IMG/VR virus record: IMGVR_UViG_3300045988_123958
DNA: 64,000 nucleotides
Reading direction: 5' to 3' (one strand)
Source of the DNA: a virus
The notes beneath the pieces are model-generated. The model was given only the letters and a program-made list of their open reading frames with translations. It was not told the origin of the DNA and ran no database searches. A program made the translations under genes and the position numbers. Each line of letters begins with the position of its first letter. Position 1 is the stretch's first letter. Of this stretch, positions 467 through 1,621 are shown piece by piece.

Positions 467-1621
467 CGTTTTTATTTATTGGACTATATTTTTCACGATA
501 ATTTACTGAGAGCATTTTAATTCAATTATCGCTAGAACATCTTTCAGATGGTGCTTATCTCCACCTTACATAATAGTCTCTACACATTTAATCTTTATTT
601 ATCTATTTCCAATAATAACCTTTATATAAAGTATTTTCTTTTATCGCTTTATCTAACTAAGTATGTCCTTTTAATCCTAAGAATTCTAATACTGCGGTTT
701 TAGCATTAAAAATTTGAATTAAATTATTATTTTCATCATACATAGCAATTTTTTTACCATTGATAGCCTTATTACCTTTTTTACCATACATACCATTTTT
801 ATTTCCTAATGTCTTACCAATACTATTAATAGACATTTTTTGTTTTGATTCAATAGTATGATGTTTACCATACATTCCATTATTTTCTCCAGATGTCAAT
901 TTACTCATTTTATTTTTAAACTCTGGAGTTTTATAAATTGAATTATCTCTTTCAAATTCAGCCCAATATGATAAAAATGATTTTGTTTCTTCGCTATGCT
1001 ATTTGCCATACATTCCATTATTTTTACCACGATTTAATTCACTTAATTTTCTTTTTAAAGCTTTTTTTTCTTCTTCAGTATATCCAGCGGTAGTATTACC
1101 GCCTTCTCCGCCTTCATGAATATTATAAAATAATGGATTAGATACTGCATTATATAAAGCTATAAAATATTTTTCTTTTTCTTTATTTTCTTCATTATTA
1201 TTAGAAATATATAAAATAGACTTAGTAAAGTTTTCTTTTCCGTATTTATTAATAGCTCTTTTTAAAATTTTGCCACTTCCTAAATAGGAATCATCTAATT
1301 CTCCATAATGTTTTCCAATATATTTCATACCATTTATGTTATTTGTAGTTAAATAAATATAATGTTGTTTCATCATTAAACAACTCCTTTCATAATTATT
1401 TAACTATTAGAATTAGACAATGACTTGACTTTGTCCAAGATTTTTAGCACGGTATTATCAATCTATCCATTTTCAGGACATAGACTCTCTTAGTCAGTTG
1501 ATTCGCTCTTAAAATTAATTAAGACTTATTTCACTGATACCGTTAGCCTGCATCAAGCAGACACCCATTAAGCAATGGTTAATGTTCTTTTTTTACAACT
1601 GCCCAATATCAATATTAGACT
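467..1621 (-). mobile_element. group I intron (subgroup IA2, T4 td-like) in dnaE, carrying a GIY-YIG endonuclease ORF
   Basis: 5' exon ends in U (ccT at 1622); P1 pairing CUGCCU:GGGCAG directly downstream; P3/P4-like GCTAACGG; P7' AAATATAGTCC near 3' end; intron ends in G (plus 467); splicing gives PDIDIDL. Confidence 0.7.
657..1376 (-). CDS. GIY-YIG homing endonuclease with NUMOD3-like NGMYGK repeats (intron-encoded), one in-frame TAG at 996-998
   Basis: YIYLTTNNINGMKYIGKH GIY-YIG motif; ORFs 999..1376 and 657..908 share a frame and are separated only by TAG. Confidence 0.7.

Follow-up and report, generated by a model that had tools for sequence, protein, structure and literature searches.

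The intron of the phage T4 td gene, which harbors the GIY-YIG homing endonuclease I-TevI, belongs to the IA2 type of group I introns. Small IA2-type introns with a P7/P7.1-7.2 region reading GACUAU..AGUAGGG (P denoting the numbered pairings of the intron RNA) also interrupt replication genes, as in orf142 of Staphylococcus phage Twort and in the SPO1-type introns of Bacillus phage SPO1; both of these possess P2 and P9, and the SPO1-type introns encode HNH endonucleases and reside in family A polymerase genes. The present analysis concerns an insert in the gene for the DNA polymerase III (Pol III) alpha subunit, dnaE, of a virus represented by IMG/VR record IMGVR_UViG_3300045988_123958, whose analysed stretch of 64,000 nucleotides (nt) is hereafter called the window. 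This insert can be identified with high confidence as a mobile group I intron that encodes an I-TevI-like homing endonuclease, and its sequence resembles the T4 td/IA2 type. The analysis established exact insertion boundaries, a conserved and covarying RNA, nuclease homology, presence/absence polymorphism, and derivatives devoid of the open reading frame (ORF). Although selfish elements of this kind are well known, this one is notable for its dnaE target, its atypical periphery, its invisibility to the Rfam group I model RF00028, and its recoding-gated endonuclease. A precedent for a group I intron within a DnaE-type Pol III alpha gene was not found in the literature; given the incomplete coverage, this is weak evidence of novelty.

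The insertion in dnaE and its boundaries

The host gene, which starts from an ATG at 2999..2997 on the minus strand, encodes a PHP domain (Pfam, 91.3 bits, 1.1e-25) followed by a Pol III alpha domain (DNA_pol3_alpha, 136.3 bits, 2e-39) and is thus of the DnaE type. The gene and its insert are arranged as follows.

1622..2999, minus strand: dnaE exon 1, encoding the PHP domain and the first part of the Pol III alpha domain as far as ...ERAELP, with a switch to the +1 frame at CTT TGA C (2945..2939)
467..1621, minus strand: group I intron of 1,155 nt, its first base A1621 and its last the terminal G at 467, delimited by intron-less alleles, same-site homologs and covariation
1..466, minus strand: dnaE exon 2, starting with GAUAUU (461..466, the P10 partner), encoding DIDIDLAPSKRP... 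and continuing past the window end

The exon 1 frame terminates in ...RFLNKERAELP, with its final CCT at 1624..1622, and exon 2 opens with GATATTGATATT (DIDID) at 466, where the protein resumes as DIDIDLAPSKRP; the 1,155-nt insert between them starts with AGUCUAAUAUUGAUAUUGGGCAG and ends with AAAAACG. When IMG/VR was searched with the spliced query of 224 amino acids (aa), 80 loci were retained, all of which match it without interruption (663-684 nt) and several at 100% protein identity. By motif scan, the sequence ...CCN/GAT ATT GAT... (the slash marking the junction) could be read directly in 71 of these 80 loci, representing 52 distinct sequences. The first and last bases of the insert are A and G, and those of the adjoining exons are T and G; the boundaries consequently cannot slide, and the intron-less alleles fix both of them to the base without ambiguity. 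The junction expected after splicing, written with the exon sequence of this allele, is ...GAACUGCCU/GAUAUUGAUAUU....

Against Taq Pol III alpha (3E0D/2HPI), the spliced protein aligns free of gaps (7e-28), with ELPDIDID placed over SMPDIDTD. The insertion point therefore separates the codons for Pro and Asp in the catalytic-site motif LP/DIDID, and the aspartates of the PDIDID motif are presumably the catalytic aspartates of the palm domain. Codons of a catalytic site would be a typical target of homing elements. The nearest polymerase from an isolate, that of the gut phage Phass-1 (52% aa identity), has no intron at this site. A first-pass annotation, made from the DNA alone, had proposed that exon 1 ends in ...RFLNKERAELP at 1622 and that exon 2 begins with DIDID at 466 within a Pol III alpha gene. 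Both exon ends are confirmed, the Pfam domains and the Taq alignment identify the host gene as claimed, and the proposed junction is backed by the intron-less IMG/VR alleles as well as by the gap-free homolog alignment.

A homologous insert occupies the identical site in a further 17 loci, drawn from IMG/VR, ENA, Logan and one NCBI metagenome-assembled genome, which were located by exact-pattern scans and look-ups of endonuclease homologs and are labelled within L081-L099. Nucleotide identity among the same-site inserts is ~70-89%, and the endonucleases of more distant relatives are 65-68% identical. In three loci (L087, L094 and L090) the insert contains no ORF and measures only 304-310 nt: AAAAUC-GGAA-GAUU or AAUCUU-AACU-AAGAUU stands in for ~850 nt, and P6 is closed by a short loop. 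These copies indicate that the ORF sits in the P6 loop and that the RNA was retained when the ORF was lost. On the other hand, close relatives of the window (L001, L004 and L012, ~95-96% identical across dnaE) are without the intron, and the element is therefore polymorphic for presence and absence among near-identical phages. The empty site, the intron with its ORF and the intron without it form a natural series suited to the study of the homing cycle.

The intron RNA

Covariation was assessed on an alignment (A1) of nine distinct ORF-trimmed sequences together with 12 nt of each exon. The alignment was folded with RNAalifold, after which P7 (GACUAU/AUAGUC) and P10 were added as pseudoknots and the pairs were counted. 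Unaided, RNAalifold recovered P1, the long-range P3, two hairpins 3' of the P3 5' strand, P4, P5 with two internal hairpins, P6, a hairpin following P7, and P8. In A1, 99.3% of cells are paired and compensatory changes occur in 29 of 76 pairs, a count reached by none of 500 shuffles; slid controls yielded 1-3 compensatory pairs and 28-43% paired cells. In an extended alignment (A4, with L095, L097 and L098 added), several helices fall out of register for these three divergent sequences, which were checked by eye, and the pair counts refer to A1. The elements of the RNA, in transcript order, are listed below.

1622..1627, minus strand: P1 5' strand, exon CUGCCU, its last U in the U.G wobble at the 5' splice site
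1599..1610, minus strand: internal guide sequence, GAUAUU (P10, pairing with exon 2) followed by GGGCAG (P1 3' strand)
1589..1598, minus strand: single-stranded UUGUAAAAAA, directly 5' of the P3 5' strand
1581..1588, minus strand: P3 5' strand, AGAACAUU, from the RNAalifold long-range pairing
1546..1578, minus strand: extra hairpins P3.1 (CCAUU..AAUGG) and P3.2 (GUCUGC..GCAGGC), between the P3 5' strand and J3/4 (the joining segment between P3 and P4)
1449..1543, minus strand: P4-P5 domain, with P4 ACGGUAU/AUACCGU, P5 CAGU/ACUG and internal hairpins at 1507..1524 and 1457..1485
1437..1442, minus strand: P6 5' strand, AAUCUU, pairing with 590..595 across the ORF
590..595, minus strand: P6 3' strand, AAGAUU
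573..578, minus strand: P7 5' strand, GACUAU, invariant, inside the R-like element GUAGAGACUAU
546..566, minus strand: P7.2-like hairpin, GGUGG/CCAUC, with the invariant loop AGAUAAGCA; 4 of 6 pairs compensatory
534..541, minus strand: P3 3' strand, GAUGUUCU, from RNAalifold and the pair count
495..532, minus strand: P8 hairpin, GCGAUAAUU...AAUUAUCGU; 7 of 9 pairs compensatory
482..487, minus strand: P7 3' strand, AUAGUC, inside the S-like element AAAAAUAUAGUCC and followed by a 14-nt A-rich tail
467, minus strand: terminal G (omega G), the 3' splice site

The most telling changes are those that connect exon and intron. In P1, CUGCCU (1627..1622) pairs with GGGCAG (1604..1599), the splice-site U.G being present in nine of nine A1 sequences; in L091 and L092, columns 9/33 change from G-C to A-U, with the Leu codon CUG becoming CUA as the guide changes from GGGCAG to GGGUAG, while L097 has UUACCU/GGGUAA, with two further compensatory changes. 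In P10, an A-U pair is replaced by G-C in L087 and L094, where the Asp codon GAU becomes GAC and the guide GAUAUU becomes GAUGUU. Within the intron, compensatory changes affect 4 of 8 pairs of P3 in A1, and L097 substitutes a different complementary pair, GGACG/CGUCC. The same alignment shows such changes in 3 of 5 pairs of P3.1 and 4 of 6 pairs of P3.2; both hairpins are retained in the divergent L095 and L097, and the P3.2 loop holds large insertions in L084 and L093. P5 and both of its internal hairpins likewise carry compensatory changes, and the P6 strands of L095 and L097 differ yet remain complementary. The six base pairs (bp) of P7 are complementary in all sequences. Despite variation of the tail, the terminal G is kept in all of at least 12 distinct homologs, and the 5' U.G is similarly invariant. 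An alternative P5, UAUCA/UGAUA beside P4, was considered and dropped; the CAG/CUG pairing covaries from C-G to U-A in four sequences.

Several details given in the first-pass annotation are reproduced by these data, including P1 (CUGCCU:GGGCAG with U.G at the splice site), which covaries among homologs; the AAAAACG end of the insert; the strings AAATATAGTCC and GCTAACGG, both of which are present; and a td-like P7', borne out by AUAGUC as the complement of the GACUAU hexamer shared with T4 td. 

If the RNA behaves as its fold suggests, the transcript would adopt a group I core consisting of the P3/P7 pseudoknot, P4-P6 and P8, and a single guide, GAUAUU-GGGCAG, would form both P1 and P10. An external guanosine would attack directly 3' of the U in the U.G pair, releasing exon 1, which would in turn attack 3' of the terminal G, joining CCU to GAU and restoring the DnaE frame. 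Splicing of the dnaE intron is thus predicted from its sequence.

Two further observations concern the loops. The loop AGAUAAGCA of the P7.2-like hairpin (window 546..566) is invariant in all homologs, including the most distant, and is complementary to UGCUUA in the loop of the P3.1 hairpin (1565..1578), a possible 6-bp loop-loop contact. The GGGUGU linker joining the two extra hairpins is also invariant, and neither the linker nor the AGAUAAGCA loop shows covariation.

The endonuclease and its recoded codons

The ORF interrupting P6 has the following layout.

588..1376, minus strand: endonuclease ORF, located within the loop of P6 and encoding 262 aa with TAG translated as Gln
1384..1390, minus strand: Shine-Dalgarno (SD) sequence of the ORF, AAAGGAG
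588..590, minus strand: TAA stop of the ORF, overlapping the P6 3' strand by one base

The encoded protein matches NUMOD3 (PF07460) at 61.8 bits, with a cutoff of 20.4, and PHROG 314, 'homing endonuclease', at 1.5e-38. BLASTP aligns it with I-TevI (4e-7, 26% identity over 208 aa) in a register that places YIY...YIG, Arg, Glu and Asn in correspondence. A fold search was performed with the AlphaFold model of P0001, a 97%-identical database protein (mean predicted local distance difference test score, pLDDT, 75.7), and the top three matches in the PDB are the I-TevI catalytic domain (1MK0, 1LN0; prob 0.98-1.0, template modeling (TM) score ~0.6 on the target, E 0.015-0.1). The family is large, numbering over 3,400 relatives among database proteins. 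By homology and modeled fold, the ORF product appears to be an I-TevI-like GIY-YIG/NUMOD3 homing endonuclease, for which cleavage is predicted. Matches to TRIM71 NHL repeats, returned by a single-sequence PDB search with the endonuclease, were discarded as spurious.

A trace of mobility may be preserved in exon 1. Over the last 18 nt of this exon (GAGAGAGCCGAACTGCCT), the window matches exactly the distant intron-containing alleles to which its identity is ~70-79% elsewhere, and departs from its closest intron-less relatives (~96% identical overall) at four synonymous sites, all within the last 15 nt. C at positions -6 and -10 is found in 75% of intron-containing versus 17-19% of intron-less alleles. 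This tract suggests, without being decisive, a short co-conversion upstream of the insertion site, as might be expected for an I-TevI-like enzyme that cuts upstream. The endonuclease would presumably cleave the intron-less dnaE of co-infecting relatives, whereupon repair would copy the intron into the site; from these sequences, we infer that the dnaE intron homes.

Three in-frame TAG codons, absent from the first-pass annotation, interrupt the ORF at 999..1001, 657..659 and 603..605. In the homolog alignment, two of the three lie opposite CAA/CAG Gln codons and the third opposite TAG or Tyr, while a TAG in L084 lies opposite CAA in the window. Such exchange of TAG and Gln codons between homologs indicates that TAG encodes Gln in this phage. 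ORF coverage of the window rises from 67% to 92% once TAG is treated as a sense codon, and six further GIY-YIG ORFs score above the Pfam cutoff when TAG is translated as Gln.

12252..12929, minus strand: GIY-YIG ORF
18682..19590, minus strand: GIY-YIG ORF
25986..26675, minus strand: GIY-YIG ORF
28620..29369, minus strand: GIY-YIG ORF
39609..40349, minus strand: GIY-YIG ORF
62382..63026, minus strand: GIY-YIG ORF

Together with the intron ORF, these seven GIY-YIG ORFs contain 32 in-frame TAG codons among 1,727 codons, compared to ~58 among ~16,900 in the other ORFs; dnaE, like the gyrase-like genes and most of the other large genes, contains 0-1. The selfish nuclease genes are therefore the most heavily recoded in the window. 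Six tRNA genes are located at 57755..63180 (Cys, Lys, Gly, two Ser and Thr), none of them with a CUA anticodon, which implies that the TAG suppressor is encoded outside the window or supplied from elsewhere.

A related situation appears in a preprint by Borges et al. (bioRxiv 10.1101/2021.08.26.457843), which describes 'Agate' gut phages with a group I intron endonuclease that lies in an early gene and is enriched in recoded stops, and in which the authors propose that recoding delays the endonuclease until late infection. The TAG enrichment in the nuclease genes of the window fits this idea, with the difference that TGA is reassigned to Trp in Agate phages and TAG to Gln in the window phage. 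With its three TAG codons, the intron endonuclease would be made only while the TAG-to-Gln decoding of the phage is active, offering an example of a selfish gene that is adapted to, or held in check by, a reassigned stop codon.

Alternatives, neighboring anomalies and known introns

A number of observations weigh against a straightforward td-like intron with an intact endonuclease in a functional dnaE. There is no P2, the interval between P1 and P3 consisting of UUGUAAAAAA only, and two hairpins occupy an unusual position between the P3 5' strand and J3/4. P4 and P7 are invariant in A1, and covariation consequently supports neither. No P9 hairpin is present: the tail from the P7 3' strand to the terminal G comprises 4-24 A-rich nt, and none could form in L095 (CACA). 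P9 is counted here as periphery rather than catalytic core, and its absence is a real departure from the textbook fold; in the summary in PMC3873408, 'P3.1' is listed among group I pairings as optional and P9 as mandatory. With respect to the protein, the GIY-YIG match (PF01541) reaches 19.5 bits, under the cutoff of 22.6, a profile search of PDB sequences with the endonuclease returned no match, and an intact ORF requires TAG to be a sense codon. Of the two domains named in the first-pass annotation, NUMOD3 therefore stands on its Pfam score and GIY-YIG does not, though the I-TevI alignment and the fold matches support the latter. Finally, dnaE itself shifts to the +1 frame at codons 19-20 (CUU UGA C, window 2939..2945, minus strand).

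The Rfam search proposed earlier as a check also came out negative. RF00028 gave no match on the window (gathering score for the whole window; E <= 10 for 350..1750), nor on the ORF-less L087 and L090 (E <= 1) or on the 551 nt of L087 800..1350 (E <= 10). However, this model misses the T4 td intron as well, and its silence therefore says little; as a positive control, it detects a different group I intron in L087 (8797..9091, minus strand, 66 bits, E 5e-15). The dnaE intron shares with RF00028 the order P3-P4-P5-P6-P7-P3'-P8-P7' and similar R/S elements.

These observations can be accommodated in several ways. The absent P2/P9 periphery and the AT-rich sequence could mean that the group I intron needs a protein cofactor, whether from the host, from the phage or in the form of its own endonuclease acting as a maturase, and the invariant P7.2-like loop and GGGUGU linker, which have no assigned partner, would be compatible with this. 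Such dependence is rather unlikely, considering that ORF-less copies persist, which would make the intron's own protein dispensable in cis, and that the covarying P3.1 and P3.2 could provide the missing peripheral support.

Very improbable is a decayed, non-splicing group I intron in a dead dnaE, a proposal that draws on the +1 break CTT TGA C at codon 20 and on the lack of P2, P9 and an RF00028 match. In many lineages, sharing 70-99% identity, both exons remain open and subject to purifying selection, compensatory changes maintain the structure, and the frame break is itself conserved, with synonymous changes around it, in at least seven other loci from three metagenome datasets.

Gene callers split the locus on related contigs into three genes, encoding an N-terminal protein of 429-475 aa, the endonuclease and a C-terminal protein of 763-824 aa. 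This annotation, along with the RF00028 result, could be taken to indicate a 'fractured gene', that is, a non-splicing endonuclease cassette flanked by two separately translated halves of DnaE that assemble. Such an arrangement is hardly credible: the 5' end of exon 2 has neither a start codon nor an SD sequence, unspliced read-through from exon 1 reaches a stop 17 codons into the insert, and the split would fall inside the catalytic PDIDID motif. Moreover, ~300 nt of non-coding RNA around the ORF are conserved with 29 compensatory pairs, the whole RNA structure is retained in the ORF-less versions, and the covarying pairs between exon and guide are relevant to RNA splicing only.

A group II intron (no reverse transcriptase, no domain V and no Rfam match of any kind), an intein (the insert is out of frame and contains stops), an IStron (no transposase) or an assembly chimera (independently assembled contigs from several sources share both the insert and its position) has nothing but the Rfam negative in its favor and can be set aside.

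The group I reading put forward in the first-pass annotation is accordingly supported by the boundaries, the covariation, the td-like core, the endonuclease and the DnaE-type host gene. A broader proposal, possible but doubtful at present, is that this intron may be the founding example of a widespread, unannotated td-like subclass in phages from gut and other metagenomes, in which hairpins between P3 and J3/4 replace P2 and P9, P3.1 possibly kisses AGAUAAGCA, standard covariance models see nothing, and homing is timed by a code switch. Rfam misses the intron, gene callers split the polymerase into two or three 'genes' and the standard code truncates the endonuclease; as the size of the endonuclease family indicates, replication modules of these recoded phages are therefore mis-annotated on a large scale. 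The intron is also a candidate ribozyme of small size, with good covariation and with peripheral elements that depart from the standard.

Two anomalies in neighboring coding sequence look more unusual than the intron. The first is the dnaE frame change, which separates an upstream N-terminal HxH motif from the rest of the PHP domain. CUU UGA C is the heptamer of the programmed frameshift of prfB, the gene for release factor 2 (RF2). The extra T is kept in the window and in L004, L005, L011, L013, L014, L050 (as CUU UGA U) and L056, loci from three metagenome datasets that share 75-99% identity and differ synonymously near the site, while ~45 relatives have the in-frame form. No SD-like element is found just upstream of the heptamer. 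Rather than a sequencing error, the site probably represents programmed +1 frameshifting that responds to release-factor activity; no precedent for a CUU UGA frameshift in a phage dnaE was found, although literature coverage was incomplete and this is weak evidence of novelty.

The second anomaly lies ~1.5 kb upstream, in a RecD/Dda-like helicase gene that has 5 extra nt (GCT/TAACT/GGA; window 4417..4427, minus strand) in its Walker A motif, between ...CIAGYA and GSGKST, with the protein conserved on either side. Inserts of 5, 6 or 8 nt, always beginning with TAA, occur in 11 distinct sequences (the window and ten others), the other forms being TAACC, TAAGTT, TAAGCT and TAAAGGCA; ~25 distinct relatives have no insert. 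The insert closes with a triplet similar to the Ala codon in front of it (GCT/ACT, GCC/ACC, GCT/GCT, GCC/GCA). The arrangement is reminiscent of a short hop of the ribosome past a stop codon.

Additional introns are evident in the window and its relatives. A second group I intron in the window (~12083..13100, minus strand) splits a DnaB-like helicase gene, with exons at ~13100..14150 and ~11583..12082, and has a more canonical td/Twort appearance, with GGCUAACGGGGAACC...AAUCCCGUG, GACUAUUCCCC..GGGGAAGUAGGG, GAGAUAGUC and a P9-like hairpin; its ORF (12252..12929) encodes GIY-YIG and helix-turn-helix domains and has four in-frame TAG codons. It gave no Rfam match at gathering score in the window scan. 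An nhmmer search of the window with a profile of the dnaE intron detected no second copy of that type. In L081, positions 6059..6164 match this profile weakly (E 1e-7) over the P3.2-P4-P6 region and may mark a paralogous intron of this type within a different gene. Another insertion of ~1,030 nt is found in dnaE exon 2 of L081 (~11104..12133) and L090 (~3616..4645), after ...QERG, at the equivalent of window 244/245; it is missing from the window, ends ...GGUAUAGUCU...UAAUGG and is likely another group I intron.

Relative to the best-known introns, the dnaE element combines a familiar core with altered surroundings. Its P/Q/R/S-type core sequences are similar to their T4 td counterparts, and strings common to the two introns include UUGUAA before P3, UAA(A)CGG at J3/4-P4, CCGUGCUAAA at P4'-P6, and GACUAU and AUAUAGUC at P7; the P4 flanks read UAACGG / CCGUGCUAAA here and UAAACGG / CCCGUGCUAAA in td. 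Its relative L097 additionally has GACUAUCC..GGAGUAGGG, as td does, and GACUAUCCGAAAGGAGUAGGG, close to td GACUAUCCCUUUGGGGAGUAGGG, and it displays the GACUAU..AGUAGGG region of the Twort and SPO1-type introns. Hairpins between P7 and P3', characteristic of subgroup IA2, number two in L095 and L097, which have an additional P7.1 hairpin upstream of the P7.2-like one (td-like CC..GGAGUAGGG in L097), and one in the window copy. In contrast, td has P2, P7.1 with P7.2, and P9/P9.1/P9.2, whereas the dnaE intron is without P2 or P9 and alone bears two hairpins between P3 and J3/4. The linker of I-TevI contains a zinc finger and a helix-turn-helix domain, compared to three NUMOD3 repeats in the dnaE-intron protein, whose ORF, unlike that of td, needs TAG to be read as Gln and lies in dnaE rather than td. 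Despite these differences, the two introns have near-identical P7 strands (GACUAU / AUAGUC), both accommodate within the loop of P6 a GIY-YIG ORF that overlaps the P6 3' strand at its end, and both invade a gene of DNA metabolism at a conserved catalytic motif.

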